From NCBI GenBank assembly GCA_031551525.1, contig JAVBNN010000023.1:46442-110441 (forward strand): DNA of 64,000 nucleotides, written 5' to 3'. The DNA is from Acidaminococcales bacterium (lineage in GTDB: Bacteria; Bacillota; Negativicutes; Acidaminococcales; JAISLQ01). The notes below the pieces were generated by a model. The model had not been told where the DNA came from. It did no database searches and was given only the letters and a program-made list of their open reading frames with translations. The translations under genes were made by a program, and so were the position numbers. Each line of letters opens with the position of its first letter. The stretch's first letter is position 1. Shown here piece by piece: positions 15,692-41,394 of this stretch.

Positions 15692-16915
15692 CTATTTCAC
15701 GCCTACGCAAAGATATTGAGCAGTAGTATTTAAAGTTGTAAGTCCCTCATTACCTTGGCATATGATTTGTGCAGTCACCACACCCGTAGTTTGTACCACA
15801 CTGCACCTTCCCGCTACAACAGCATTTCCCCCTGCAGTGGTCTCGTAGCTATTCAGCCACACCGCACACATACACTGCGTCCTAGTGTAACCACTGGGCA
15901 AAGGTATTGTTCCACCATGAGAAATAGTGCCGCTCGTTACAACAGTCGTGTTTCCCCCGGCGGCGGCATAAGCCGCTATAGCCGCGCGAACAAAAGCCGT
16001 GGTGGCTATCTGCGTACTATTGGTAGCCGTAGCCGCCGTCGGCGCGGTCGGTGTGCCCGTCAATGCAGGAGAGGCCAGATTCGCCTTGGCCGCCAGCGCT
16101 GTGTTCATGTCCGCAGTATTCGCTTTACCACTAACCGCTCCGGTAACAAAAGCCGTCGTCGCCAGTTGTGTAGTATTCACTCCCGCCGCTGCGGTCGGCG
16201 CGGTCGGTGCGCCTGTAAATGCGGGGCTGGCCAGGTTGGCTTTTGTTGCCATATTCGCCTGCACAAAGGCAGTGGTAGCCAACTGCGTATTGCTGGTAGC
16301 CGTAGCCGCCGTCGGCGCCGTTGGCGTACCGGTCAAGGCCGGACTAGCCAGATTTGCCTTGGCCGCCAGCGCGGCGTTCACACCATTGGCCAGATCATAA
16401 GCCGTTTTCACCGCCTTTGAACTGGCAGCAGTGTTGCTGTCAGCGCTCGTCACGCTGTCCGAAAGCGGCGGCGTATCGCCCTTATCACCCTTCGCCCCGG
16501 CCGGACCAGTTGCGCCGGTCGCCCCCTGAATACCCTGCGCGCCTTTGGCCCCGGTAGCGCCAGTTGCGCCCGTATCGCCTTTAGGCCCTTGCAGCCCCTG
16601 CGGCCCTTGCGCCCCGCTGTCACCCTTTGCCCCGGTTGCCCCGGCCGGGCCGGTCGCACCTACGGGGCCTTGCGCTCCGTTAACGCCGTCCGCCCCGCGC
16701 AGGCCTTGTATACCCTCTTGCCCTTGTACTCCGGCTGGGCCCCGCTCGCCGGTCATTACCGGCAGAGCCGTGAACGGCGTCACACCGTCACCCAGTTTAA
16801 AATATGGATTGGGCCCGTCCGTAACCATGCCCAGTTCCCCTTTTAGCAGCACCGGATCGTACAGTTGCCAGTTCGCCAGCGTATCGCGCCGAAATTGTAT
16901 TTGCATTAAAGACAT
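15692..16915 (-). CDS. Tail fibre protein with Mtd/HylP-type N-terminus, collagen-like stalk and tail-fibre repeats
   Basis: N-terminus QFRRDTLANWQLYDPVLLKGELGMVTDG...KLGDGVTPFTALP. About 30 G-X-Y triplets. Three copies of KANLASPA[LF]TG.PTAPTA....T.T.[LI]ATTAFV. Confidence 0.85.
   Translation of the reverse strand: MSLMQIQFRRDTLANWQLYDPVLLKGELGMVTDGPNPYFKLGDGVTPFTALPVMTGERGPAGVQGQEGIQGLRGADGVNGAQGPVGATGPAGATGAKGDSGAQGPQGLQGPKGDTGATGATGAKGAQGIQGATGATGPAGAKGDKGDTPPLSDSVTSADSNTAASSKAVKTAYDLANGVNAALAAKANLASPALTGTPTAPTAATATSNTQLATTAFVQANMATKANLASPAFTGAPTAPTAAAGVNTTQLATTAFVTGAVSGKANTADMNTALAAKANLASPALTGTPTAPTAATATNSTQIATTAFVRAAIAAYAAAGGNTTVVTSGTISHGGTIPLPSGYTRTQCMCAVWLNSYETTAGGNAVVAGRCSVVQTTGVVTAQIICQGNEGLTTLNTTAQYLCVGVK
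16478..16750 (-). repeat. Collagen-like G-X-Y repeat region of distal fibre
   Basis: GERGPAGVQGQEGIQGLRGADGVNGAQGPVGATGPAGATGAKGD... is an uninterrupted Gly-X-Y periodicity over ~90 aa. Confidence 0.9.
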
Positions 16916-16929
16916 ACTTTATTTCCCCC

Positions 16930-18057
16930 TCACATAAAATCCGACGCCGTACCGGCGTCTATAACATCTACCTGCGTCTGATAAGCCCCGCCGCAATCAA
17001 TAAGCCCCGTAACCGGAGGCTGTCCGGGCGGCCCCGGCTCTCCCCGGTCGCCCTTGTCACCCTTTATTCCCTGCGCTCCAGTGTCGCCAATCGCGCCCCT
17101 TACACCCTGCGGCCCTTGCGGCCCCTGTGGCCCGGTCGCGCCTATGGAACCGGCGCCTCCCCTTTCTCCCGTCAGCCCTACTGGCCCGGGCGGGCCCTGC
17201 TGCCCTTGTGGGCCGGTCGCGCCGGTAGGCCCGTCCGCACCCTGAACACCCCCATCACCCTGTGTACCCTGCGGGCCGGTCGGACCGGGATCTCCCGGCT
17301 GCCCTCGCGGCACGCCAAACCATATCATATTGGTCTCCGGGTTGTAGATAGCCGACGGCCAGTCCTCGTGCGACACATCATAAGCGGCAGTAGACAACTT
17401 TTCCACATCAAGCGTTTCATCCCACAGACCGTTTCTGCGGCCATAAAGCTTCCCGTCTTCCGGCGCGTCCTTTACAGACGCTCCGGCCAACGCTATCGCC
17501 TCTCCCGCTATCTCTTTCGCCGCATCTGCCGTTTGTACCGCATACTCTATCCCGTCCGGGTTCGCCCCGTAGCGCAGCCCTGCGCCGTCATTCGTAACGG
17601 CGATACTCGCGCCCGGCTCTATAGGCGCCGGCAGCTCGGCATTAAAATCCTCGCTTACCGGAAATACTATAGCCCGGCCGACCTTCTCCCACAGTTGCTG
17701 GATCAGCATCGTGAGTTTGTCCGCCATCTTTTCAATGACTGGGAACGGCCAGCGGTCGCCGAGGTCTACCAGCTGCACCGGCGGCACCTCCCGGTAGAGT
17801 ACCAGCTTCCAGCCCGGCGGCAGTACCTCTGGCCGCTCGTTTTCCGGCGACTCCTCGCCCGGCGCATACCCCGGGTAAAACACCGACTTTTTCGCCATAT
17901 CGACGAAATAATTCTTGGCTAAAAGTTCCTCTTTCCCCTCCGGGTCTACCAGAAGCACCTTCACATGCTCTCTCTCGTGAAAATCGAACTGGCAGGGGAA
18001 CTCCACCGCCATCCCGTTGCCCTGGTAAACCACTTTCGTTAAAGTACCTGGTAACAT
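16930..18057 (-). CDS. Tail fibre protein with T7 gp17-like N-terminal attachment domain and C-terminal collagen-like region
   Basis: N-terminal pattern [18 protein letters not shown]...HVKVLLVD...YFVD...[17 protein letters not shown] resembles the T7 tail-fibre N-terminal domain. G-X-Y repeats span aa 252-347. Confidence 0.75.
17017..17304 (-). repeat. Collagen-like G-X-Y repeat region of proximal fibre
   Basis: [96 protein letters not shown]. Confidence 0.9.
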
Positions 18058-18095
18058 TTTTTACACCACCCCCTACATTTGAATTTGGGTATAAG

Positions 18096-18127
18096 AAAAC
18101 CACGTAGGCTAATCCCCACGTGGTTTT
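18096..18127. terminator. Intrinsic terminator downstream of the Bro-N gene, inside the late operon
   Basis: AAAACCACGT-12 nt loop-ACGTGGTTTT. The minus strand continues TTTTCTTATA. Confidence 0.7.
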
Positions 18128-18145
18128 GATATTTATTTATGTGGA

Positions 18146-18730
18146 TTAATTTTTCTTTGTGTGTTCGTAATGTAAATGGCTCGCGTTTGACGCCAAACAG
18201 TAAGCTATGGTTCTTAAAGTACCGGCCATTTCTATAAAAGTACCGCTAAAGCCTATCCCCTCATAAACCTCCAGCACCTTGATAAACGTCTGCGCCTTGT
18301 CTTTCATGTCTTTAGCCAGAACTTTTATGTCCTCCAGTTCGGTAGGCGAGACCAACGGTACAGGTTTCGGCAACATCGGCGTTGTCGGTACTGGCTGAAC
18401 TGGCGGTAAATTCAAGGTGTAGCTGCCGGTCTTTCTGATAGCCGGTATAACCTCGTGGGTTATCCAGCGTTTAAAGGCTTTGGCTTCGGGCTTACGACTA
18501 TAAAGAACAAGGTGATATAACCCATACTCATTAACTACTGCTAATTCTTGCTTGCCGCCAAGGGTGTGCATTGAACGCACACCCTTTTCATCTTCAGCTA
18601 GCCTGCGGGTTTGCGTTCGCTGTATACCGACGGCCTCACAAACATCATTAGCAACAAACCAAGTTTCGTCCTTCTCAACGATTGTACGAATTTTCTTTTT
18701 CTGAAAATCAAATACCCGCAAATTACCCAT
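18146..18730 (-). CDS. Bro-N domain protein (prophage antirepressor-like)
   Basis: FDFQKKKIRTIVEKDETWFVANDVCEAVGI...NEYGLYHLVLYSRKPEAKAFKRWITHEVIPAIRKTG is the Bro-N/antirepressor signature. ATG at 18730 has a GGGAGG RBS. Confidence 0.85.
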   Translation of the reverse strand: MGNLRVFDFQKKKIRTIVEKDETWFVANDVCEAVGIQRTQTRRLAEDEKGVRSMHTLGGKQELAVVNEYGLYHLVLYSRKPEAKAFKRWITHEVIPAIRKTGSYTLNLPPVQPVPTTPMLPKPVPLVSPTELEDIKVLAKDMKDKAQTFIKVLEVYEGIGFSGTFIEMAGTLRTIAYCLASNASHLHYEHTKKN

Positions 18731-18772
18731 AAATAAAAACCTCCCAAATTTTTGATTTGAAAGAGGTTTCCG

Positions 18773-18795
18773 CTGTGATATAATAGATTTCACAG
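18773..18795 (-). promoter_or_regulatory. Palindrome-flanked 15-nt motif AAATCTATTATATCA upstream of the Bro-N gene
   Basis: Minus strand reads CTGTGAAATCTATTATATCACAG. The identical 15-mer sits at 40796-40810 upstream of the Rha gene at a similar distance from the start codon. Confidence 0.55.
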
Positions 18796-18851
18796 AAGGA
18801 AACTTCTGGCGAATAGGGTTTCCCTAATGTCTTTGACCGGACGGGGAAACT

Positions 18852-18992
18852 CTATTTCTTTTTGCTATCAAGGTCTTTTTGAACAAGCGTAAGAATATAC
18901 TCTTTTAAAGAAAGTCCTCGCTTCGCGGCCTCTACCTTGATAGCCGTATGTTGTTCGCTTGTCACCCTGATAGTTATTGTTCTCTCTTCCAC
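18852..18992 (-). CDS. Ribbon-helix-helix (Arc/CopG-like) small DNA-binding protein, copy 1
   Basis: 46-47 aa, below the ORF-track cutoff: V(V)EERTITIRVTSEQHTAIKVEAAKRGLSLKEYILTLVQKDLDSKKK. GGAGGTGAA RBS. Paralogous to the 40595-40732 product (KEYILELIQKDL). Confidence 0.65.
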   Translation of the reverse strand: MEERTITIRVTSEQHTAIKVEAAKRGLSLKEYILTLVQKDLDSKKK

Positions 18993-19030
18993 CACTTCAC
19001 CTCCTTGTTTTGCAGTATATACTGCATTAC

Positions 19031-19082
19031 TGCAAAAGTCAAGAGGTTTTTATTTTATTAGTAACGTGGTATGATTATGACA
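19031..19082 (+). promoter_or_regulatory. Repeated promoter block, copy 1 (extended -10 TGGTATGAT)
   Basis: GCAAAAGTCAAGAGGTTTTTATTTTATTAGTAACGTGGTATGATTATGACAC is near-identical to 19736-19786. It is preceded by the palindrome TTTTGCAG-N14-CTGCAAAA. Confidence 0.65.
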
Positions 19083-19099
19083 CGGAAGGAAGTGGCAAT

Positions 19100-19447
19100 G
19101 TGGGATATCTTGTATACTTTGCAACAGCAAGCTACTTTTTATTGATGACCGACGATAATGGCCGCATAAATTGGCACGACAACGCAATATCTCTGCTTGG
19201 CTATTTCGCGATGTCCATGCTCTTTTTGTTCTGCCCTTCTTTATCGCTTTTCGCGGCAGTCTCCGGCATTGTATTTCTGTTGCCTTTCATTTCCAGTTTC
19301 CCATCGTCCTTCGCTGTGGGTTACTTTGCCGTCCTTATATTTTTTGCAGTTGCGGCATTCAGCACAAAAAAAGGCAATGTTTCTATTGCCGTCGTATACA
19401 CTGAACTTCGGAAGGAAATCTTGCAGAACATTAAAAGCTCCATATGA
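19100..19447 (+). CDS. Small integral membrane protein (moron, ~115 aa, 3 TM)
   Basis: GTG at 19100 has a GGAAGGAAG RBS 7 nt upstream. It lies downstream of the repeated promoter. The product is strongly hydrophobic and has no recognised family. Confidence 0.5.
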   Translation: MGYLVYFATASYFLLMTDDNGRINWHDNAISLLGYFAMSMLFLFCPSLSLFAAVSGIVFLLPFISSFPSSFAVGYFAVLIFFAVAAFSTKKGNVSIAVVYTELRKEILQNIKSSI

Positions 19448-19508
19448 CTAAAAGGAAACTTCTCGCCAGAATAAACAATCGCTTTATCTTTGACCGGATA
19501 GCGGTTGT

Positions 19509-19688
19509 TTATTTCTTTTTGTCCAGCTCAGACTTCACAAGATTAACCCCTTTTACAATTACTTCTGCTCGGGAAGTTTGTAACTGGTCTGCACACTCCT
19601 GTAAGGTTTTTGCAGTGTCTTGCGCTATTCTGATTTCCAGACGGATATTTTTAGGGTTATCTGTTGGCCTGCCTGTGCGTGGCGTCAT
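19509..19688 (-). CDS. Ribbon-helix-helix (CopG-like) small DNA-binding protein, copy 2
   Basis: 59 aa: MTPRTGRPTDNPKNIRLEIRIAQDTAKTLQECADQLQTSRAEVIVKGVNLVKSELDKKK. GAGGTGA RBS. Its 5' and 3' flanks are homologous to those of the 18852-18992 gene. Confidence 0.6.
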   Translation of the reverse strand: MTPRTGRPTDNPKNIRLEIRIAQDTAKTLQECADQLQTSRAEVIVKGVNLVKSELDKKK

Positions 19689-19735
19689 TTTATCACCTCA
19701 CTTTTGCCCGTGCTTAAATAATAATATATGCCCGT

Positions 19736-19786
19736 GCAAAAGTCAAGAAGTTTCTTTTTTATTAGTAATGTGGTATGATTATGACA
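19736..19786 (+). promoter_or_regulatory. Repeated promoter block, copy 2 (extended -10 TGGTATGAT)
   Basis: GCAAAAGTCAAGAAGTTTCTTTTTTATTAGTAATGTGGTATGATTATGACAC, preceded by ACTTTTGC...GCAAAAGT and a duplicated TGCCCGTGC. Confidence 0.65.
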
Positions 19787-19814
19787 CAATATAGTAAAGG
19801 GGGCGGATTGTTTA

Positions 19815-20555
19815 ATGAATACAGAACAAATTGCAATCACCGCTTTAACTGCTTTTACTACAACAATGGTAAGCAAAGGTGCAGATGCTCCTGCCCGAAC
19901 ACTGAATCTGCTATGGGAATTTATTTTTGGTAAATTTGACGCAATGATGCAAAACAGCATAAGCGCAAGACCCTATAACCTAACAAATTTTGGAAATAAA
20001 ATACACGAATTCACTAAAGACATCCCCCCCGAGCACATCCAAGAACCCGACCTTGCCATTATGGGCCCCGCCCTTGAAGCCTCAAAATATTACATTGAAA
20101 AAGAGCCTATCAGAAACGCGTTTGCAAAACTGATCGCGGCTTCATTCGATGCAAGAAAAAATGAAAGCACACATCATTCTTATGTTGAAATAATTAAACA
20201 GATGAACCCAAACGATGCAAAAATATTTACTAAACTTAAAAACCCATTTTATTTACTATGCTATAGTTTTTCTATAGAGTCACGCCCTTATATAAGACAA
20301 GATATTTATTTGGATGATTGCCACCAAGAGCCTAGTCTGGAAGATAGCATAGCAATTGGTAATCTGGAACGTTTAAATCTCATTGCCATTACAAGGCAAA
20401 GAGGCGGTATTACTACACACTATCCAGAAACACAAGAAATTATCACGCATTTTAAACAAACAAACCTCTATAAAACTTCTAAAGAAGAAATTATATTGGT
20501 CGAACAAGGGTTGCTTACTGAATACGGTTGGAACTTTAGACAGTGTTGTTTATAA
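19815..20555 (+). CDS. Abi-alpha (DUF4393)-like protein, candidate abortive-infection/exclusion factor
   Basis: Central block LAIMGPALEASKYYIEKEPIRNAFAKLIAASFDARKNESTHHSYVEIIKQMNPNDAKIF matches my recollection of the DUF4393/Abi_alpha core (..L...FA.LLA.A.D....HP.FVEII.QL.P.DA.IL). Confidence 0.5.
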   Translation: MNTEQIAITALTAFTTTMVSKGADAPARTLNLLWEFIFGKFDAMMQNSISARPYNLTNFGNKIHEFTKDIPPEHIQEPDLAIMGPALEASKYYIEKEPIRNAFAKLIAASFDARKNESTHHSYVEIIKQMNPNDAKIFTKLKNPFYLLCYSFSIESRPYIRQDIYLDDCHQEPSLEDSIAIGNLERLNLIAITRQRGGITTHYPETQEIITHFKQTNLYKTSKEEIILVEQGLLTEYGWNFRQCCL

Positions 20556-20675
20556 ATCTCTTATTTTTTCATAAATAAAATCCGCCATTTTCAGAGCTAA
20601 CCAGCCGCTTATCGTTACATTAACAACAGAACCTACAACCAATAGCCCAATTAAAAATACATATGTTTCTAACAT
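20550..20675 (-). CDS. 41-aa hydrophobic peptide (hypothetical)
   Basis: MLETYVFLIGLLVVGSVVNVTISGWLALKMADFIYEKIRDL. GAAGGTGAG RBS. Below the ORF-track cutoff, and convergent with the Abi-alpha gene with a 6-nt overlap. Confidence 0.3.
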   Translation of the reverse strand: MLETYVFLIGLLVVGSVVNVTISGWLALKMADFIYEKIRDL

Positions 20676-20748
20676 ATTCTCACCTTCTTTCATTAAATAT
20701 TATTATGTCGCGTCCCGCGTAAACGCGTGGCTTGAAATGGAGGCCCCT

Positions 20749-21105
20749 ATGAAAAAACTACTGCACATTTTCGCGCTGATAGATGTACAGCACATTTTAA
20801 TTTTAGCAACAGTTGCCCTTCTCTACGCGGGCATAATAGGCTTTGATGATATTAAGTATTATGGTTGGGTGCTGTATGGAGCCTCTATCGCATCTTTCTT
20901 TTTGTTCTTAAGCGGGAATTATCAGAGCGAACATAAGACAACCACAAGGGTTTTTCTCGGCTTGATAATGTCACTAAGCGGGCTATCTCTGTCGTTAGAA
21001 ACAGAAAGTATTGTTGGTTTTGAAAAAGTCTCGTTATTTTTCGCAGGCATCATGCTAGTGTTTCTATTGCAAGATATAAATAACGAAACCCCACCGCCCT
21101 GCTAA
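20749..21105 (+). CDS. Small integral membrane protein (moron, 118 aa, 4 TM)
   Basis: ATG at 20749 follows GGAGG with a 5-nt spacer. The product is hydrophobic throughout, and a terminator follows directly. Confidence 0.5.
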   Translation: MKKLLHIFALIDVQHILILATVALLYAGIIGFDDIKYYGWVLYGASIASFFLFLSGNYQSEHKTTTRVFLGLIMSLSGLSLSLETESIVGFEKVSLFFAGIMLVFLLQDINNETPPPC

Positions 21106-21117
21106 CTGCGGGGCGGT
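21093..21117. terminator. Bidirectional terminator between the membrane moron and the giant protein gene
   Basis: ACCGCCCTGC-taact-GCGGGGCGGT followed by TTTTCTTTT. Confidence 0.7.
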
Positions 21118-21123
21118 TTTCTT

Positions 21124-24100
21124 TTACCTCTCTCTTTTCGGCCGCCGCTTGGCCAAGTCCATAAACTCAAAGTCCATTTCGTCCTGTAAAAGATTCCACG
21201 CATTGAAAAACCAGTCATTTATCTGGTCCGGGTATTTGAGAAGGAAAGCCGATGCAGCCGCGATAGCCTCTGCCTTGTCCGCCGGCTCCGCGTCGTCTTT
21301 CATCATCTTTTGCCCGGCGCGGATGATTCCGCCGATCTGGCTTTCTAGCGGCGACATGGTATAACCGAAGGACTGGAAGCCGAGCGCCTGTTCTATGCCG
21401 ACTTTTATACCTGAGCCGATGAACGGCACCATGGCCAGCGGCCAGAGTGCTATCTCCTTGATAAACCATTCCAGATACTTGTCGTCGTCCGGCATTTTGA
21501 AGGAGTACAGCGCGGACAACACGCCGAAGCCGATATACTGTTTTGCCGTAAACACAAACAGCCGGCCGACGTCTTTTTTGTCCATGAAGATATTGGCTTC
21601 GCGCATCCAGCGGTTGAGCTGAGTATTGAAAAAGCCGGTGTACATGGTCAAAAGCCGCGTCCCGGAACCTCCTCTTTGCAGGCCGGAAGTGTCTATCAGG
21701 CGGCCGCTGCCGGTACTGCGCTCGATAACCGTATCGGCAAAGTGGACAGCGTCTTTCTCGGACATCTTCATGGACAGCGCCTTGTCGTAAGCCCCTAGCC
21801 ACATCGGAATGTCGGTCAGTTGGTCCGACCAGGCGAGTACATCGCCGCCCAGTTTTATCATCTGGTTTTGCGTCAGCTCTATCTTGATACCGGCCTCCTG
21901 TAATGCGCCGGTAGCGTTGCGGGAAAGTACGTTGCCCTCCTTCACCATACTTTGCAGCTCTCTCAGGGTAAAGTCCGGCGCATCCATTTTGTCGCGCATC
22001 ATCACCGACTTTTCAAATACAAAGGCGCGCAGCTCTTTGGCCCGCGCCGAATTTGTAATGGCCGCCGGTATGTAGTCGCCCACGCCACGCCTGGTGTACG
22101 CCTCGAAAGCGTCCATCTCCGTAAAGCCATTTACCGCATTGCCATACAGGGTAAAGTTGGCGTTGTTCTGTACTATCGTCCCCGGCCGGAACAACAGACC
22201 GGCCGTCACCGTCCGCGCGCGCATCCAGTTCAAAAGCGGAGCCATCCAGTTTTTCACCGGGGCCGTATCCCGCCCGCGCGCCACTGCACCCTGCCAGTCT
22301 ACTATTGCCTTGTACCCTTCCTCGCCCAGCTTATGCCGGAGGGTGTCGCGCACTTCCTCCTTGCGCATCAGTTTGTTTATATCGTGCATGACCGGACGGA
22401 AGGCTATGTCCTGCGTCACCTGTTCCAGATGGTTAAAGGCATTGTTGAAGTCAAGGTCTACCGAGTAGCTGGCCTTCGTCCTTGTTTTGGAGGCCCCGCT
22501 GTTCGGGTAGGGCATGACACCGACAAAGTCGCCCAGCGCCTTTTCTGCGTTGAGTTCTGCCTGCAAAGTCGAACGCCGGTCTTGCTTTAACGGATAATAG
22601 CCGCCCTGCAAAACTATTGTGTTGCCGTCCGGCAGGGTAAATTCCACCGGCATGGCTTCCACCTTCGGCAGAGAAAAGCCGGTCATTTTCGTGACCATCT
22701 CGTTATACGGAGTGTAAAGATTTATGGCATTCCAGATATCCTGCACCAGGTGGAAGTCTTTTTCGGTCAGGTACTTGGCCAGCACTTCTTTTATTTGCGG
22801 CTCTGTCCAGTTGGCTTGTTTCCATGCCAATGACTGGTTGAAGCCGACGGGGGCTTGGCTGACGAGCCGTTCCATATTGGATTCACTGCCCATATTGAGC
22901 GCGATCACCCGCATGTCCATCTTGGATAGCGACACATCCCATTCCGGAATATATTTTTTGTTATTTACATCCCGGTACTTTTGGGCGTTGTCTATGCCGG
23001 CGCGCTTGAAAGCCTCGTCCAATTTCGTGCTGGACTTGCGCAAAAGGTCGCTTTTGTAGTCGGCCGCTTCTTTGACATAGCGGTAAAAGGCTGTGTGCCA
23101 GGGGCCAAAGTCTTTCATGCCGTCTAGTTCGAGCAGTATCTCGGTCACTTTTTTATTGCCTAGGTAGATCTCTTTTATCATCCTGGTCACCGGGCTGGTC
23201 GCCCCTACCGCCCCCGCTTCATCCCGCAGTACATCCTCCATCCTCGCGGATACTTCCATTAACTTTCGCGCCAGTTCGCTGGACGAGCCGCCATTGTCGA
23301 TAACCGCGAAAGCGTCGCTGTTCACGCCTATCCGGTCGATCATCCTGATGTTCCTGATGGCGTTGGCCACGTCCTTATACTGTTCGATGGTCAGTTCGGC
23401 GCGCGCGTTGGGCGCCTCGGTGTCCGCCTCCAGCCACTCGGCTATGCTGATGATGTCGGGATTGCTGCCCGGCATGTTCAGGTTTTCCTGCCTCGCCACA
23501 TAAGCCATCAGGCTTTCTCTTTTCAGCGCCGGGTTGTAGTCGCTGCGCCCCATACCGAAGCGGCGCAAGAGATCGGCCGCCTGGACGAAGTTCGTTTCCA
23601 TGTCCCAGTTGGCCTTTTTCCTGTTGCGCTGGCGCTGGAGGTATTTCTTTATGCCGTCGTATTCCCGGCGCACCCGGAGGCTTTCCTGTACCATGGCGTG
23701 ATTGTACAACTGGAGTTTTTTCTGCTCAAGCGCGATATCCAGGTCGCCATTGGCCAGCGCGACGGCCGACTTCTCGGCGGCCTTTCTTTCGGACGATATG
23801 TAGGTCTGCAAGTTGCTGGCCCGGTCGATGGTCATTTGACTTATTGCTTCTTTGGCGGCCAGTTTGGCGTAACGCTTATTCATCTGTGCTATTACTTGGT
23901 CGCCTATCTTCATCGGGCTTTGGTGCGTCATTTCGTGCAGCTTGTCCTCGATGATGGCCAGCTCCAAAGCCATCAGCTCCGCCCCGTACTCGTTGTACAT
24001 GGCCTGCTTGGCTTCTTCGGCGAAAACCGCCTTATTGTCGTATACGCCGTCAAACTCTGCCTTGATGAAAGTGTCCGTCATGTGGGTAGCCGCTTTGTTG

Positions 24101-27100
24101 ATCGGCTCGGTTTCCAGTATCTTGGTTGCCAACTCCGACCCCGATGAATAGTCGCTGAGTTCGGCCAGATAGTCAAAATGCACCGACTGATCGTCGGACA
24201 GGTTGCCTTTGTACTCCGTGCCGTTGAAGTAGCTTTGCTCTTTTTGCTGGTAGGCTTTGGCCAGCGTCCAGGCGTTCTTCCACTCGCCAGAGAATTCCAG
24301 ACTCACTGCGTCGATGGTTTTATATATCTGCTGGTCGGCCAGTATTGCGAGGTTGGCTTCGTAGGTCTGTTCGCGTATCTCGGTGATCTCCTGCTTGGCT
24401 TCTTCGGTAAAGGATTTCAATATCTTGCCGGATAGAATGTCCTCTGCCTTTTGCCGTGCCCCGATAATCGCTTTGTCGAGACGCTCCTTTTGCGCCGGGG
24501 TGAGCGTTTCCAATACCACCTGCGGCAGTTTGTTGTAGTAGCCGTCTACATACTGGCGCTGGGCGATCTGTTCTTCGGTGGCCAACATGCGGTCAAATAC
24601 CTGGCGCACTTCATCGGTCAGGGGAATAGCATTCGGGCTTCTTTTTATTCCCCGGTAGATTTGACGCATCCACTCTTTAAAACGCGCCATTACCGGGCGC
24701 ATTTCCGCCGACGGCGCTTTACCTTCGAGGATATAGCTCTCCGCTGCCTCCGCCCATCTTTCATGCGCTTTTTTGCGTTGCTCTGCGGTGGCCGTCTCCC
24801 AGTTTTCTATCTCCGCGTATGTCAAAAGCGCCTGCCAGTCCTTCTGTACTTGCTCCGGCGCGTCCTCCATCAAATAACGCTTGTATATCTCATTTACCGC
24901 GAAATGCCCTAAAAGCTCATGTACCACCGTTGAAGCGTCCGCCCCGCCTAGTAGAGTAATGACCGCCCGGCCTTCCTTGTTCCAGCCGATAGCGCCTTTG
25001 TTTTGCTGATACAGCGTTCCGTCCTCTATGCCCGACGGCTTGACATCACCACGTAAAACATCTATACTGATATCAGAGATAGACGCTTGGCTCCGGATGT
25101 CCGGCGTCGCCTGGGAGGTCTGGCTGCTCTTTGAAGCAGATGAACCTTCGGACAGGAGAGTGTCTATGTCGATAGGACCTTCCGTCTGGGTAGTGCTCCG
25201 GTTATCGGATATGCTGCCGTACAGAGAGGGTTCTATTTTTATTTTTGCTGTTTTGTGGTCTTTGTATGACGCAGGCAAATCTAAACGAGGGATATCTACT
25301 TTAAATCGAATAGAATAGTATTCGTCGCCTATCTTGCAGGCGGCATAGTATCTGTTTTGCCCTTTCACAGAAGGATGGCCTTCGCTAGCCTCTTCAAAGC
25401 TATCAAACACCGCATTTTCAAGAAGTTTGTCCAAAATGGCGTACGCTTCGTTATGGCCTTCATGCCGCTTACGCTTTAAGCTGGCGTCCAGCCCCGCTCC
25501 AGTAAAGCGCTGCAAAGTGCTGTCATCAGCTATGGTTATTTCCTTTCCCTGGAATTGCCCACGTAACCATTTTCGTAAAGTAGCGGCGCTTCCTTCCCCT
25601 TTAGCAAAAACTTCCTGCGGCATACTGGCCGGGTCTATTTCAATAACTGACGCACTTTTGCCATTCTCCAATTTCACGGATTGATTATACTGCGCTTTGA
25701 GCCCCTCCCCGCCCTTCATCCATAGAGGGGCGTTTTCTTTTAGCCATGTGGCGGGGTCGGTTGAGAGGTTTTTCGCCATAGCGGAAAGAAACTCCACCGC
25801 GCCGCTAGCTTCGCCTATAGGCATACCGGCCTGGCGTGCGTCGTGGAGTATTTTGTCTTTTTCCACCTGGAGCGCCTCTTGCTGGCGCAGAACCTCTTCC
25901 TTACTCCGGCGGATATCTTTATCGTTGAGGATTTCTATCCGTTTAGCCGAAAGAGAAGTCTCGTCAAAAGAAATATCGTCTTTTAGCGCGGCGTGCATAT
26001 CTTCGTGCTGTACGGCGGCTACTTCATATGTGCCTTTGGGTATTTCTATTGTTTCTCCCCGCGCGGCTGCTTTCTGTACTTCGTCCGGCGTCAGGTTAAG
26101 GTCTTCCAGCACTGTGCCGTCGCTCTCTTGAAAATACGTCAAAAGCGCGTCGCCCTCTATATAGACCTTTTCCCCGGTACGGTTAAGAAACTGCTCCATC
26201 GCCTCCGGGCTGCGCTGCATGACCGGCGAACCTTTGATAGTCGCTATCTCGCCATCTAGTTGTTGTATTTGCGCCTTGAGGAGGTTGCGGTCAAAAGCTA
26301 CACTCACGCCGCCAGTCGCACCACCAAAGGCCATACCAAGCAATCCGGCGTACCCGGCTTTTTTCGTTATCTCGCCAAACTCGTCAAGAAACTGCTGTCC
26401 GCGCTCCGTCCAGGTCTTGCCCTCTGACTTCGCCCAGATAATGGCCGCTTCTTCCGGGTACTGCTGTAAGGCTTCGGTCAGACCTTCCGTAAAAACAGTC
26501 TCGGCAAACTTTCTTAGCGCGGCATTCTTTGCGCCCTGCTTGGCTGGTTTAAATAGCTTACCGATACCTAGCTGCTCTAGCGGAGCCTGTAAAAAAGCGT
26601 TACCCATGCCAGCAGTAAAAGCCCTCGACGGGTCAACTCCCTCGTCAGCTAGTTGCTCGTAGCTGCCCCCCGCTATCTGCGTACCCATGAAAACCGCGCC
26701 GCCTGCGCCGCCTGTCAAAGCGGTCGCCACTATCTGCGCCGCTATCTGTGGGGAGTTTTCCACAAAGTCCAGCATAAACTGTTTTACATATTTGTCTTTG
26801 GGCGCTTCGTTGAACTCCCGTTTTAAGAGGTCGCTTTTTCTGATGCCCTCCCAGTCCACTACCTGATTATTTTTTGCAGAGGTCGCCATCTCTGCTGCTT
26901 GCGGGTGTACCAGCGCGGCATCATCCCCAAACAACCTCCTCGCCAGCGCCACTTCTTCCTCTGTAGCAGCGACCGACGACTTGTTCCAGCCCTCCATGAA
27001 AGCGGCGAAAGTGCGCGGCAGCGCCTTTGCGCCGTTTGTAAACGCCGTGCCAAAACTCGAAGTGTCCTGTAAGTCCGTCAAGCTCTTTACCCCTTGCCGA

Positions 27101-27393
27101 TCGCGCACGATAGCCATATGGATAGGATCTTCGAGAAAAGTCTTTACTTCTGGATGAGTAAAGCCCAGCCGCTTAAATTCCTCCGGGTTGATTAGGTTTT
27201 CTACTCTTGCCGCTGGATTATTCAAAGCCGTTGACATGTCAAGGTTGGTTTTCATGGAAAGGTGCAGCGCCTGTGAGGCTTCCTGCTGCCGGATATTGGC
27301 TACTCTTTTTAAATAGCCATATTCCGGCGTTTCTTTTACCAGTATTTCGTTTTTTATAGTTTCTCTCTGTTCAGGTGTAAGAGCTATAGACAT
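21124..27393 (-). CDS. Giant (2089 aa) virion-internal/ejection protein, polyvalent-protein-like, with HExxH motif
   Basis: One uninterrupted 6.27-kb ORF in the position of podovirus core/ejection proteins. Gly-rich hydrophobic segments at aa 215-365, HELLGH at aa 825-830 (24904-24921), and hydrophobic C-terminal segments around aa 1940-2010. Confidence 0.6.
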   Translation of the reverse strand: MSIALTPEQRETIKNEILVKETPEYGYLKRVANIRQQEASQALHLSMKTNLDMSTALNNPAARVENLINPEEFKRLGFTHPEVKTFLEDPIHMAIVRDRQGVKSLTDLQDTSSFGTAFTNGAKALPRTFAAFMEGWNKSSVAATEEEVALARRLFGDDAALVHPQAAEMATSAKNNQVVDWEGIRKSDLLKREFNEAPKDKYVKQFMLDFVENSPQIAAQIVATALTGGAGGAVFMGTQIAGGSYEQLADEGVDPSRAFTAGMGNAFLQAPLEQLGIGKLFKPAKQGAKNAALRKFAETVFTEGLTEALQQYPEEAAIIWAKSEGKTWTERGQQFLDEFGEITKKAGYAGLLGMAFGGATGGVSVAFDRNLLKAQIQQLDGEIATIKGSPVMQRSPEAMEQFLNRTGEKVYIEGDALLTYFQESDGTVLEDLNLTPDEVQKAAARGETIEIPKGTYEVAAVQHEDMHAALKDDISFDETSLSAKRIEILNDKDIRRSKEEVLRQQEALQVEKDKILHDARQAGMPIGEASGAVEFLSAMAKNLSTDPATWLKENAPLWMKGGEGLKAQYNQSVKLENGKSASVIEIDPASMPQEVFAKGEGSAATLRKWLRGQFQGKEITIADDSTLQRFTGAGLDASLKRKRHEGHNEAYAILDKLLENAVFDSFEEASEGHPSVKGQNRYYAACKIGDEYYSIRFKVDIPRLDLPASYKDHKTAKIKIEPSLYGSISDNRSTTQTEGPIDIDTLLSEGSSASKSSQTSQATPDIRSQASISDISIDVLRGDVKPSGIEDGTLYQQNKGAIGWNKEGRAVITLLGGADASTVVHELLGHFAVNEIYKRYLMEDAPEQVQKDWQALLTYAEIENWETATAEQRKKAHERWAEAAESYILEGKAPSAEMRPVMARFKEWMRQIYRGIKRSPNAIPLTDEVRQVFDRMLATEEQIAQRQYVDGYYNKLPQVVLETLTPAQKERLDKAIIGARQKAEDILSGKILKSFTEEAKQEITEIREQTYEANLAILADQQIYKTIDAVSLEFSGEWKNAWTLAKAYQQKEQSYFNGTEYKGNLSDDQSVHFDYLAELSDYSSGSELATKILETEPINKAATHMTDTFIKAEFDGVYDNKAVFAEEAKQAMYNEYGAELMALELAIIEDKLHEMTHQSPMKIGDQVIAQMNKRYAKLAAKEAISQMTIDRASNLQTYISSERKAAEKSAVALANGDLDIALEQKKLQLYNHAMVQESLRVRREYDGIKKYLQRQRNRKKANWDMETNFVQAADLLRRFGMGRSDYNPALKRESLMAYVARQENLNMPGSNPDIISIAEWLEADTEAPNARAELTIEQYKDVANAIRNIRMIDRIGVNSDAFAVIDNGGSSSELARKLMEVSARMEDVLRDEAGAVGATSPVTRMIKEIYLGNKKVTEILLELDGMKDFGPWHTAFYRYVKEAADYKSDLLRKSSTKLDEAFKRAGIDNAQKYRDVNNKKYIPEWDVSLSKMDMRVIALNMGSESNMERLVSQAPVGFNQSLAWKQANWTEPQIKEVLAKYLTEKDFHLVQDIWNAINLYTPYNEMVTKMTGFSLPKVEAMPVEFTLPDGNTIVLQGGYYPLKQDRRSTLQAELNAEKALGDFVGVMPYPNSGASKTRTKASYSVDLDFNNAFNHLEQVTQDIAFRPVMHDINKLMRKEEVRDTLRHKLGEEGYKAIVDWQGAVARGRDTAPVKNWMAPLLNWMRARTVTAGLLFRPGTIVQNNANFTLYGNAVNGFTEMDAFEAYTRRGVGDYIPAAITNSARAKELRAFVFEKSVMMRDKMDAPDFTLRELQSMVKEGNVLSRNATGALQEAGIKIELTQNQMIKLGGDVLAWSDQLTDIPMWLGAYDKALSMKMSEKDAVHFADTVIERSTGSGRLIDTSGLQRGGSGTRLLTMYTGFFNTQLNRWMREANIFMDKKDVGRLFVFTAKQYIGFGVLSALYSFKMPDDDKYLEWFIKEIALWPLAMVPFIGSGIKVGIEQALGFQSFGYTMSPLESQIGGIIRAGQKMMKDDAEPADKAEAIAAASAFLLKYPDQINDWFFNAWNLLQDEMDFEFMDLAKRRPKRER

Positions 27394-40594: not shown

Positions 40595-40732
40595 ATGCCC
40601 GATAAAAATATCGGGTTCAAGGTCGATGAAGAGCTTTATAGACGCATTAAAATACACATAGCACGTAAAGGTAAAACGCTAAAAGAATATATTTTAGAGC
40701 TAATTCAAAAAGACCTTGAAAACGACAAATGA
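40595..40732 (+). CDS. Ribbon-helix-helix (Arc/CopG-like) small DNA-binding protein, copy 3
   Basis: 45 aa: MPDKNIGFKVDEELYRRIKIHIARKGKTLKEYILELIQKDLENDK. GGAGGTGA RBS. Below the ORF-track cutoff. Confidence 0.7.
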   Translation: MPDKNIGFKVDEELYRRIKIHIARKGKTLKEYILELIQKDLENDK

Positions 40733-40790
40733 GAAAGTAGCCGCCCCTCCAGCAAGAGAATAAGCGGCTACCTCACAGCACCAGCCGAGG

Positions 40791-40811
40791 CTGATAAATC
40801 TATTATATCAG
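40791..40811 (+). promoter_or_regulatory. Palindrome-flanked 15-nt motif AAATCTATTATATCA upstream of the Rha gene
   Basis: CTGATAAATCTATTATATCAG. The same 15-mer occurs at 18776-18790 (minus strand) upstream of the Bro-N gene. Confidence 0.55.
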
Positions 40812-40848
40812 CATTGGCTTGGTGTATCAACTTTAAAGGTGGTGCACT

Positions 40849-41394
40849 ATGACAAATTTATTAAAAACAAAAACTACTTTTACTTTGGACAGCCGCGAAG
40901 TTTCTAAAATGGTAGATAAAAGACATGATAATTTATTAAGAGATATCACAGGGTATAGTACAATACTAGCAAATTCTAGTGCCCTCAAAATTGAGGTGAC
41001 TGATTTTTTCCAAGACAGTGTGTATTTTGATGAACAAGGCAAACCTCGGCCTTGCTATAAAATCACTAAAAAGGGTTGTGAATTGATTGCCAATAAATTG
41101 ACTGGCAAAAAAGGAATATTGTTTACAGCCGCCTACGTCACCAAGTTTAACGAAATGGAATCTGGCAAAAATAACGTACTCCCCAGCCAGTCCGACATTG
41201 ACCGCGAGACCGAACGTCTAGTAAAAGCCGTCCGCGATCAAGCCGCGCTAATGGCAAAAGCTGCCGAAGCCTATCTTGAATACAACGATCAAAGTACAAA
41301 AAAGGCTTCGTTAAAGCTTCTAGGCTTTTTCGGTGTTGATGTCTGGGGCGCCTTTTGTAAACTTAGCAAGCACGAAGAAAACTACACGACCTAA
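40849..41394 (+). CDS. Rha family phage regulatory protein
   Basis: LDSREVSKMVDKRHDNLLRDI...CYKITKKGCELIANKLTGKKGILFTAAYVTKFNEME is the Phage_pRha signature. Confidence 0.85.
   Translation: MTNLLKTKTTFTLDSREVSKMVDKRHDNLLRDITGYSTILANSSALKIEVTDFFQDSVYFDEQGKPRPCYKITKKGCELIANKLTGKKGILFTAAYVTKFNEMESGKNNVLPSQSDIDRETERLVKAVRDQAALMAKAAEAYLEYNDQSTKKASLKLLGFFGVDVWGAFCKLSKHEENYTT

Follow-up and report, generated by a model that had tools for sequence, protein, structure and literature searches.

Tandem ribbon-helix-helix cassettes with predicted antisense RNAs in prophage late genes of an Acidaminococcales bacterium: a probable antirepressor moron

Introduction

In this study, we mainly focus on two neighbouring cassettes, each built around a gene for a small ribbon-helix-helix (RHH) protein, in a 64,000-nt stretch of an Acidaminococcales bacterium (assembly GCA_031551525.1, contig JAVBNN010000023.1, positions 46,442 to 110,441 of the forward strand). 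This whole stretch is referred to as the window, and all coordinates are positions within it. The original prediction, made from the sequence, held that the two cassettes share conserved left and right flanks around RHH coding cores that cannot be aligned, and that they represent a portable regulator-plus-promoter cartridge placed in front of different cargo genes by recombination at conserved junctions. Our analysis confirms the description of flanks and cores, supports the cartridge idea in part, and leads to a different reading, in which the two cassettes are probably tandem RHH control units of an immI-like antirepressor moron ("ant moron") inserted among the late genes of a podovirus-like prophage. 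Antirepressor control decides whether a prophage stays silent. To our knowledge, such control is poorly understood outside P22, P1, and a few enterobacterial phages, and almost nothing is known of it for the abundant temperate phages of gut Clostridia.

Organization of the locus

The features on which the analysis relies, including a third module about 20 kb away, are as follows.

18146..18730, minus strand: antirepressor gene with a Bro-N domain, 194 aa (Pfam Bro-N, E 6.7e-21; PHROG 'anti-repressor Ant', E 9e-44)
18757..18784, plus strand: predicted antisense promoter of cassette A, TTGAAA-16-TGnTATAAT
18791..18863, plus strand: predicted cis-antisense RNA of cassette A, forming left flank A (fold energy, covariance model)
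18852..18995, minus strand: putative RHH-A repressor gene, 47 aa, or 46 aa from the second GVG start (GTG)
19008..19042, minus strand: predicted RHH-A promoter with an overlaid palindromic operator (promoter listing, palindrome search)
19031..19083, both strands read: conserved block A, the right flank of cassette A (pairwise match to block B)
19100..19447, plus strand: gene for a small hydrophobic (membrane) protein, 115 aa (open reading frame and ribosome-binding site read from the sequence)
19452..19521, plus strand: left flank B, predicted antisense-RNA body without a promoter (fold energy, covariance model)
19509..19688, minus strand: putative RHH-B repressor gene, 59 aa, of the MSPRTGRPTDNPK family (PHROG_876 'transcriptional repressor', E 1e-13; AF2 model)
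19700..19746, minus strand: predicted RHH-B promoter with two operator repeats (same layout at RHH-B homologue loci)
19735..19787, both strands read: conserved block B, the right flank of cassette B, organised as block A (pairwise match to block A)
19815..20555, plus strand: Abi-alpha family gene (Pfam Abi_alpha, E 1.4e-37; PADLOC candidate defence family PDC-S47, E 2e-33)
40595..41394, plus strand: third module, RHH-C followed by a predicted antisense promoter and RNA and by an Rha antirepressor gene

The Pfam match confirms the earlier assignment of one cargo gene to the Abi-alpha family. The homology claimed for the flanks holds on both sides. The left flanks (18796-18864 and 19452-19521) are identical in 51 of 71 aligned columns, with a local score of 39 against a shuffle mean of 14.7 (standard deviation, sd, 2.4), whereas the right flanks match without gaps at 49 of 53 bases (92%) and score 86 against a mean of 14.8 (sd 2.7); in neither case did any of 2000 shuffles score as high. 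A search with the right-flank pattern finds these two copies alone in the window, and no copy in 100 shuffles. These right flanks are therefore real, although each is a block of 53 nt (19031-19083 and 19735-19787) rather than the 52 nt first described. The RHH coding sequences between the flanks are indeed not alignable: their DNA alignment score of 14 lies below the shuffle mean of 16, and BLASTP of RHH-A against RHH-B returns no alignment.

Right flanks: predicted back-to-back promoters and operators

Read on the minus strand, each conserved block supplies a TTGACT −35 element, an A/T-rich upstream (UP) region, and the outer half of a palindromic operator. The predicted RHH-A promoter consists of this −35 element at 19042-19037 and, after 17 nt, a TATACT −10 element at 19019-19014, and is overlaid by the palindrome TTTTGCAG-N14-CTGCAAAA at 19008-19037, which is unique in the window. 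The RHH-B promoter likewise combines TTGACT (19746-19741) with a −10 element, TATTAT (19723-19718), at a spacing of 17 nt on the minus strand, and contains TGCCCGTGC repeats at 19705-19713 and 19729-19737 within the inverted repeat ACTTTTGC...GCAAAAGT. That each cassette carries a palindrome of its own, with a duplicated element in cassette B, had been stated correctly. Both operator sequences were also sought elsewhere in the window as a sign of cross-regulation, with no relevant occurrence.

Read on the plus strand, the same blocks contain a divergent extended −10 element, TGGTATGAT, at 19067-19075 in cassette A and 19771-19779 in cassette B, whose end lies a few bases short of the ribosome-binding site of the membrane-protein gene (GTG start after GGAAGGAAG) and of the Abi-alpha gene, respectively. 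The right-flank homology stops at about the divergent start site, and therefore each plus-strand cargo gene appears to own a copy of the promoter, as expected from the idea of one promoter placed before different cargo genes. While the −35/UP part of the block, AAAAACCTCTTGACTTTTG, is common to many related loci, the window-specific half with the divergent promoter had no match among viral contigs, species-representative genomes, and JGI metagenomes, and nothing points to this particular promoter having been moved before other cargo genes. Searches for the exact junctions gave the same outcome, with no match for GTGGTATGATTATGACAC or the left-flank pattern in viral contigs, for AGTAAYGTGGTATGATTATGACAC in species-representative genomes, or for TTATTAGTAAYGTGGTATGATTATGAC in JGI metagenomes, although similar flanks do occur in relatives. 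The right flank may thus combine a family-typical −35/UP region with a phage-specific divergent promoter that was duplicated or homogenised between the two cassettes.

Left flanks: a predicted antisense RNA and terminator

The left flanks, homologous as proposed, are not purely intergenic, since the last 11 nt of each are coding and comprise the final Lys codons and stop codon of the RHH gene (DSKKK and LDKKK, each followed by the stop). Their identity is concentrated in three exact blocks of 11-12 nt, AAGGAAACTTCT, TCTTTGACCGGA, and ATTTCTTTTTG. On the plus strand both flanks fold into a short hairpin (H1), a long hairpin (H2) with the apical loop UUGACC, and then UAUUUCUUUUU, the arrangement of an intrinsic terminator, with energies of −31.3 kcal/mol (z −4.9) for flank A and −22.9 kcal/mol (z −3.6) for flank B. 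The H2 stems of A and B differ in sequence and both pair, and the loop is identical. In terms of these predicted folds, the three conserved blocks correspond to H1, to the apical loop of H2, and to the U-run, each of which recurs at related loci.

In cassette A, H1 spans 18793-18808 (CAGAAG-GAAA-CUUCUG) and H2 spans 18811-18857, and the U-run extends to about 18863, overlapping the Lys codons and stop of RHH-A. The antisense promoter matches 11 of 12 consensus positions in addition to the TG and is convergent with the RHH-A promoter; its −10 element ends at 18784, 67 nt from the RHH-A stop codon at 18852. These features predict an RNA of about 70 nt, from about 18791 to about 18863, that would be antisense to the last RHH-A codons and to most of the 121-nt spacer before the Bro-N gene. 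The latter is the final gene of the predicted RHH-A operon, with a GGGAGG ribosome-binding site at 18740-18745 that lies outside the predicted RNA and a start codon at 18730. Because the hairpin lacks a U-run on the minus strand, RHH-A transcripts should read through into the Bro-N gene.

A conserved 15-mer, TGATATAATAGATTT, at 18776-18790 has two copies in the window where 0.12 would be expected, one in cassette A and the other in the RHH-C module. The latter comprises an RHH-C gene (40595-40732, 45 aa) with its own promoter and palindrome (ACACTAT...ATAGTGT), a spacer with the identical 15-mer in antisense orientation at 40796-40810 on the minus strand followed by two hairpins, and an Rha antirepressor gene (40849-41394); the module is divergent from the small terminase gene.

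Cassette B retains only part of this arrangement. Its H1 is a remnant, AAAAGGAAACUUCU, with one broken pair, followed by H2 at about 19471-19512 with the UUGACC loop and by a U-run over the RHH-B Lys codons and stop. No plus-strand promoter is listed before this antisense-RNA body, and the membrane-protein gene ends 4 nt upstream of flank B; for these reasons flank B appears to be a promoterless RNA body reused as the terminator and 3′-untranslated region of the membrane gene. No Rfam 15 model matched the RNA; across the region, the search gave nothing beyond snoRNA and leader matches at chance level.

Two further structures were seen in the spacer. An inverted repeat surrounds the antisense −10 element in the window (18770-18798, e.g., CTGTGA-TATAATAGATT-TCACAG), with equivalents in five related loci (L014, L026, L109, L130, and L111) whose arms differ from one another; in the sense mRNA it would form a hairpin presenting AAUCUAUUAUA and competing with the complement of H1. 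Over 72 loci, this repeat is weakly above shuffles (4.8 versus 3.8 pairs). Within 18731-18760, the Bro-N ribosome-binding site is in turn predicted to pair with a stretch upstream that contains CCUC and partly coincides with the complement of the antisense −35 region, a pairing also predicted in the spacers of L026, L109, L133, and L016 that could restrict translation.

The RHH proteins

By Pfam, RHH-A is a bona fide RHH protein, with matches to ParD at 30.7 bits (cut-off 27.3) and to a NikA-like family at 29.4 bits (cut-off 27). The same scan also lists HicB, Omega, TacA, and CopG antitoxin, with Arc absent from the listing, and the PHROG 'Arc-like repressor' match reaches an E-value of only 3e-4. 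RHH-A is 42% identical to the RHH-C protein of the same prophage, and the two genes share a 41-nt DNA stretch at 85% identity. For RHH-B, the Pfam RHH_1 score of 17.6 bits is below the 20.5-bit cut-off. Its AF2 model (pLDDT 72) has helices at residues 23-36 and 40-58 after an unstructured N-terminus, and RHH proteins such as CopG (root-mean-square deviation 1.1 Å over 39 residues) make up nearly all of its 30 best Foldseek matches, at E>1; an RHH fold is thus probable for RHH-B.

Related loci in Clostridia phages and genomes

Homologues of RHH-A and RHH-B are rare in the protein database. All of their loci with enough sequence have a same-strand downstream Rha or AntA/ANT gene or, in L014, an unassigned open reading frame, and in all of them a 110-130-nt spacer contains a TG-n-TATAAT promoter in antisense orientation, with two hairpins and then a U-run behind it. 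In gut metagenome phages, these units are inserted at differing points of the structural gene clusters. Of the first 14 loci fetched, which had been found by protein homology, 13 have a single copy of the 15-mer TGATATAATAGATTT, located in the RHH-to-antirepressor spacer. Scanning viral contigs with the 15-mer then yielded about 20 more unique elements of the same architecture with quite different stem sequences, and an RHH-B protein profile scan of species-representative genomes gave 80 loci, 77 of which were unique and long enough for analysis. The 80 loci are nearly all from Clostridia, including Lachnospiraceae, Oscillospiraceae, Ruminococcus, Blautia, Flintibacter, and others. The order of RHH gene, antisense element, and antirepressor or small-protein gene is found in about 100 other Clostridia phage or prophage loci.

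An antisense promoter scoring at least 12 of 14 is present in 50 of the 77 loci, mostly as TTGAxA-17-(TG)TATAAT or TAGAAT, while none of the 77 has an equally good promoter in sense orientation over the same stretch. The distance from the end of the −10 element to the RHH stop codon is 59-77 nt for 48 of these 50 promoters and 99 nt for one. The predicted RNAs have a median length of 72 nt and exactly two hairpins in 70 of 72 cases, and their minimum free energy (MFE) z is below −3 in all 71 unique RNAs (median −4.7). H1 takes the form GAAGGNAACUUC in 14 of 72 loci, and an CUUUGGUCGG-like apical loop of H2 is seen in 12 of 72. A U-run follows H2 in 62 of 72 RNAs and the RHH protein ends in Lys in 64 of 75, so that the terminal Lys codons of the RHH gene appear to supply the U-run of the antisense terminator. 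Sense-strand, terminator-like hairpins with the GGUCGG loop motif of the antisense-RNA terminator also lie just upstream of the RHH promoter in L079, L084, and L087 (e.g., ATTCTAT-GGTCGG-ATAGAAT followed by TTTTTC), and because of them this loop is bound to no single strand or position.

MAFFT alignment and RNAalifold on 20 full-length RNAs gave no structure, because the stems are not alignable by sequence, and this approach was replaced by per-sequence folding and a gapless, loop-anchored alignment of H2. Of the 14 pairs in the resulting seed alignment, 12 show changes in both partners, around a loop that does not vary. Its 10 seed sequences, all taken from other genomes and none from the window, were used to build a covariance model (R1) of H2. 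Across the 64 kb of the window, R1 matches at 19472-19519 (E 0.0015) and 18814-18862 (E 0.0032), with no other match below E 2. R1 gives 67 matches in the 80 genome loci, 66 of them on the strand opposite to the RHH genes, and most directly adjoin an RHH stop codon, either that of the matched gene or that of a different RHH gene in an array.

The same-strand gene after the last RHH gene encodes Rha (7 loci), Bro-N (4), ORF6N (4), AntA (1), an ImmA/IrrE-like peptidase (2), or one of a few other proteins. Every downstream gene that can be named is of an antirepressor type (Bro-N, Rha, ORF6N, or AntA) or an ImmA-like peptidase, whereas most of the 65 cargo proteins are 45-135 aa long and have no Pfam family. 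The two peptidase-like cargo proteins, in L204 and L206, match Pfam Peptidase_M78 (the ImmA/IrrE-like family). One recurrent cargo family of 67 aa (MACVKNVKNVIKSVRGT...) was also noted, and family-less small cargo proteins of this kind are candidate small antirepressors.

Tandem arrays and reordered alleles

Of the 80 loci, 17 are tandem arrays in which 2-4 genes of the RHH-B family follow one another, with a repeat unit of about 400 nt. L182 contains four RHH genes in a row (1801-3189), and L193 contains three followed by a fourth of another RHH type (2555-3940); other array loci include L170 (1640-2490), L143, L183, L180, L185, L215, L178, L156, and L161. In several arrays, neighbouring cassettes are nearly identical on the RNA side and much less alike in the RHH gene.

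L143: RNA-side identity 99%, RHH gene 62%
L178: RNA-side identity 86%, RHH gene 70%
L180: RNA-side identity 85%, RHH gene 65%
L183: RNA-side identity 83%, RHH gene 65%

Averaged over all array pairs, the flanks are 68-72% identical and the cores 64%, against a random baseline of 55%, so that on average the contrast is modest, and a strong one is limited to the window and a subset of the arrays. When RHH alleles are clustered at 80% identity, the same alleles are found in different orders.

L182: c30-c0-c12-c2
L170: c12-c0-c2
L183 and L180: c2-c0
L156: c31-c0-c32
L193: c0-c40-c41

The differing orders are direct evidence of cassette-level rearrangement. Because arrays elsewhere share flanks and reorder alleles, the combination of similar flanks and different cores in the window is one case of a general pattern. 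From these mosaic patterns we infer recombination at the flank sequences; the shuffling by junction recombination that was originally proposed finds support to this extent, in near-identical flanks beside different cores, as in L143, and in the reordered alleles. In L146 (2414-3486), a whole unit of RHH gene and 68-aa cargo gene is tandemly duplicated, with both RHH copies in one 80% cluster, and by this example duplication of the entire unit also happens.

Prophage context

The segment from 18 to 21 kb has a G+C content of 0.42-0.45 (0.416 at 18-20 kb), whereas the late genes that flank it reach 0.51-0.62 towards the fibres (14-18 kb) and 0.55 on the other side (22-24 kb). The one-strand late genes encode a Head-tail_con portal, a small terminase, a 2089-aa LPD3 polyvalent protein, an NlpC/P60 protein, and collagen-like fibres, and because the portal is of the Head-tail_con type the prophage looks podovirus-like. 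The collagen-like fibre genes (15692-18057) lie directly downstream of the Bro-N gene and the LPD3 gene lies upstream of the cassette region, with the portal and terminase genes farther along that strand, so that two collagen-repeat, tail-fibre-like proteins (G+C 0.62) and the LPD3 protein (21124-27393) border the low-G+C island. The island has its own promoters and terminator, is inserted in a late operon, and deviates in base composition, as do morons; its expression in the lysogen is a prediction.

Two further small genes lie within the island, one of 47 aa on the minus strand (20550-20693) and one encoding a hydrophobic protein of 122 aa on the plus strand (20737-21105); these are probably further morons. 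A strong terminator (21093-21117) follows the 122-aa gene and adjoins the 2089-aa late gene. The 115-aa membrane protein is visibly hydrophobic and matches no family in Pfam, PHROG, or PADLOC. Only one other contig encodes RHH-B in identical form; it represents the same phage and is 100% identical to the window over 2997 nt. A blastn search of the 2.5-kb region against GenBank phages matched nothing but part of the Abi-alpha gene, where a short piece of the DNA resembles the DUF4393 genes of Staphylococcus phages such as 80alpha and phiNM.

Comparison with known systems

In the ant moron of phage P22, mnt, arc, sar, ant, and sieA lie within the late operon (PMC2629481). The Rfam sar model finds P22 sar at 97.8 bits in X01916 (599-532), as a 68-nt RNA with two hairpins that ends right at the arc stop codon. 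The likeness to the present locus is extensive. Both are morons in a podovirus late operon beside a tail-fibre or tailspike gene, and in both a small RHH repressor gene with an operator-covered promoter lies directly upstream of a same-strand antirepressor gene, a second RHH repressor is present in the same region, and the spacer between repressor and antirepressor contains an antisense RNA of about 70 nt with two hairpins, here a predicted one, whose 3′ end abuts the RHH stop codon. Genes of the superinfection-exclusion or abortive-infection type accompany both (PMC2629481). There are also clear distinctions. Rfam sar (RF00262) has no match in 17900-21200 at E up to 10, Pfam Arc is unmatched, and P22_AR_N scores 15.5 bits, below its 30.7-bit cut-off. 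The antirepressor is of the Bro-N type here and of the Rha, ORF6N, or AntA type in relatives; the RNA predicted here has its promoter within the spacer and leaves the antirepressor ribosome-binding site free, whereas P22 sar covers that site. The two RHH genes are in tandem rather than divergent as in P22, and the arrays of relatives have up to four cassettes. By this comparison, immI of P22 is the closest known system, as an analogue and not a homologue.

Other systems share single aspects. In immI of P1 and P7, the antisense RNA c4 controls icd-ant; it is processed from the transcript of its own target and acts on upstream sites, and P1 has neither an RHH repressor nor a convergent promoter. 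The likeness here is that an RNA repressor, in our case a predicted one, limits an antirepressor in a temperate phage. The locus also resembles morons in general in its low G+C content, in a membrane gene with a promoter (block A) and terminator (flank B), and in an Abi-alpha gene with a promoter (block B), but differs in that the promoter is fused back-to-back to a presumably autoregulated RHH promoter and that the terminator appears to be a recycled antisense-RNA gene. In lambdoid immunity regions, repressor and operator specificity modules are exchanged between conserved flanks. The cassettes are similar in having different specificity cores, shared flanks, and the same alleles in different contexts, although their modules of about 400 nt, in tandem arrays of up to four, each carry their own predicted antisense RNA. 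No description of this system in Firmicutes phages was found in the literature searched.

Proposed mechanism and alternative explanations

We consider it probable that the two cassettes are tandem control units of an antirepressor moron. A complete unit would comprise a sigma-A-type promoter under a palindromic operator, an RHH gene, a spacer encoding an antisense RNA, and a downstream gene reached by read-through, and each RHH protein would bind the palindrome and thereby repress the promoter of its own gene. The Bro-N gene would belong with RHH-A to a single operon whose transcription is limited by the RHH protein, while the convergent antisense promoter and its RNA would dampen antirepressor expression, either by transcriptional interference or collision or by pairing with the spacer mRNA, with RNase III cleavage of the duplex as a plausible route. 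The combined outcome would be an antirepressor kept silent in the lysogen. Cassette A appears complete, whereas cassette B seems to keep the RNA body and to have lost the antisense promoter and the downstream gene; it may descend from a canonical cassette that was parted from the Bro-N gene by cassette A and the membrane gene, with displacement of its cargo and of the promoter-proximal part of its spacer. Its RNA body would now terminate the membrane gene while still being antisense to the 3′ end of RHH-B. The 92% block may reflect recent copying or gene conversion between the cassettes, and the divergent promoters would drive the membrane protein and Abi-alpha from the prophage, as likely prophage-expressed accessory genes. 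Such an architecture would explain why the flanks are conserved while the cores are not.

Several points weigh against this interpretation or limit its reach. The antisense RNA, operator binding by the RHH proteins, and read-through are all predictions from sequence. The RNA misses the Bro-N ribosome-binding site, unlike P22 sar, and its effect could even be activating; the sign of that effect is not predictable because the sense spacer is predicted to sequester the cargo ribosome-binding site in several loci. Cassette B, with neither antisense promoter nor same-strand cargo, means that the model partly covers a decayed or re-purposed copy. Conservation of H2 could reflect the mere need of terminators for a hairpin, and that small family-less downstream proteins are antirepressor-like is a guess, many of them being without known function. 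Among the samples, the roughly 20 viral-contig elements carry an ascertainment bias, having been found with the 15-mer itself, from which the 80 genome loci and the homologue loci are free, and the R1 seeds were pre-selected for symmetric pairing, which inflates the percentage of paired cells and not the changes on both sides.

Taken literally, the cartridge model would have the unit of left junction, RHH gene, and 53-nt block moved in front of arbitrary divergent morons by recombination at the junctions. It accounts well for right-flank homology that ends within a few bases of the predicted divergent start, with two unrelated plus-strand genes beyond it, and relatives do have similar flanks that bracket different RHH cores beside different cargo genes; in some of them a divergent small gene even lies beside the RHH promoter, namely an 81-aa gene in L003 and a DUF2513 gene in L011. 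Nevertheless, the usual variable partner in the family is the same-strand gene downstream of the RHH gene (an antirepressor or small protein) rather than one on the divergent side, where many relatives instead have a terminator or a same-strand gene. Moreover, the left flank is no neutral junction but the predicted body and terminator of an antisense RNA in the RHH-antirepressor spacer, and the phage-specific half of the block is absent from the three collections searched. We therefore regard the literal model as quite unlikely. Much the same doubt attaches to a plain local tandem duplication followed by divergence, with flanks kept similar by functional constraint and with no exchange between phages. 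Two copies 657-704 nt apart in one genome are what it would produce, the left-flank identities do fall at family-conserved positions (H1, H2 loop, and U-run), and both copies have the UUGACC loop variant where relatives mostly have UUGGUC or other variants. Yet RHH-A and RHH-B come from separate RHH subfamilies and show no detectable similarity, RHH-A being closer to RHH-C at 40.6 kb in both protein and the 41-nt stretch; a 92%-identical block beside unalignable cores is hard to obtain by uniform divergence, and other genomes show the same alleles in different array orders.

It is also conceivable, though unlikely, that the left flank is only a terminator or insulator, with the convergent promoter acting by interference or collision and the short RNA functionless. 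H2 with its U-run is a textbook terminator, the RNA leaves the antirepressor ribosome-binding site uncovered, the element in cassette B clearly terminates the membrane-protein gene, and the GGUCGG-loop hairpins of L079, L084, and L087 lie upstream of RHH promoters. Termination, however, does not need H1, which is nonetheless the first hairpin predicted in 72 of 72 loci and recurs as the same sequence in 14 of them, nor does it need an H2 apical loop that stays conserved while the stems co-vary. A last candidate, in which the RHH genes are type II antitoxins, the downstream small proteins toxins, and the flanks ordinary operon signals, was rejected as highly improbable, given antirepressor downstream genes and no linked toxin. 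The best Pfam matches of RHH-A are antitoxin families (ParD, HicB, TacA, and CopG antitoxin), the fold matches of RHH-B include the antitoxins TacA, MazE, and ParD, many downstream genes are small and without an assigned family, and the small RHH fold and presumed operator-autoregulated operon are shared with such antitoxins. Type II toxin-antitoxin pairs, on the other hand, are usually tightly coupled, whereas 110-135 nt with a convergent promoter separate the gene pair here; every nameable downstream product is of antirepressor type or an ImmA-like peptidase and not a toxin, no toxin family was found among the window neighbours (Pfam, PHROG, and PADLOC), and cassette B has no partner at all.

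Implications

If tandem antirepressor control units are the correct reading, the cassettes offer a concrete architecture, with repressor, antisense RNA, and antirepressor combined in one cassette and about 100 examples at hand. The predicted RNAs represent a candidate small-RNA family, for which the 15-mer, H1, the H2 loop, and the covariance model serve as search signatures, and the many family-less small downstream proteins are candidates for new antirepressors. The reordered arrays may provide a small, clean system for studying the exchange of regulatory specificity modules. More speculatively, and with considerable doubt on our part, temperate phages of gut Clostridia might possess a combinatorial locus of tandem, reshufflable cassettes of about 400 nt, each with an operator-specific RHH protein and its own cis-antisense RNA, in which conserved flanks act as homology arms for the exchange of specificity cores among phages. 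Such an array would silence the antirepressors of the phage itself as well as those of heteroimmune superinfecting relatives, and the H1 and H2 loops would allow cross-recognition or binding of a common protein partner. If this were true, the arrays would amount to a broadened Mnt-type immunity against induction from outside.

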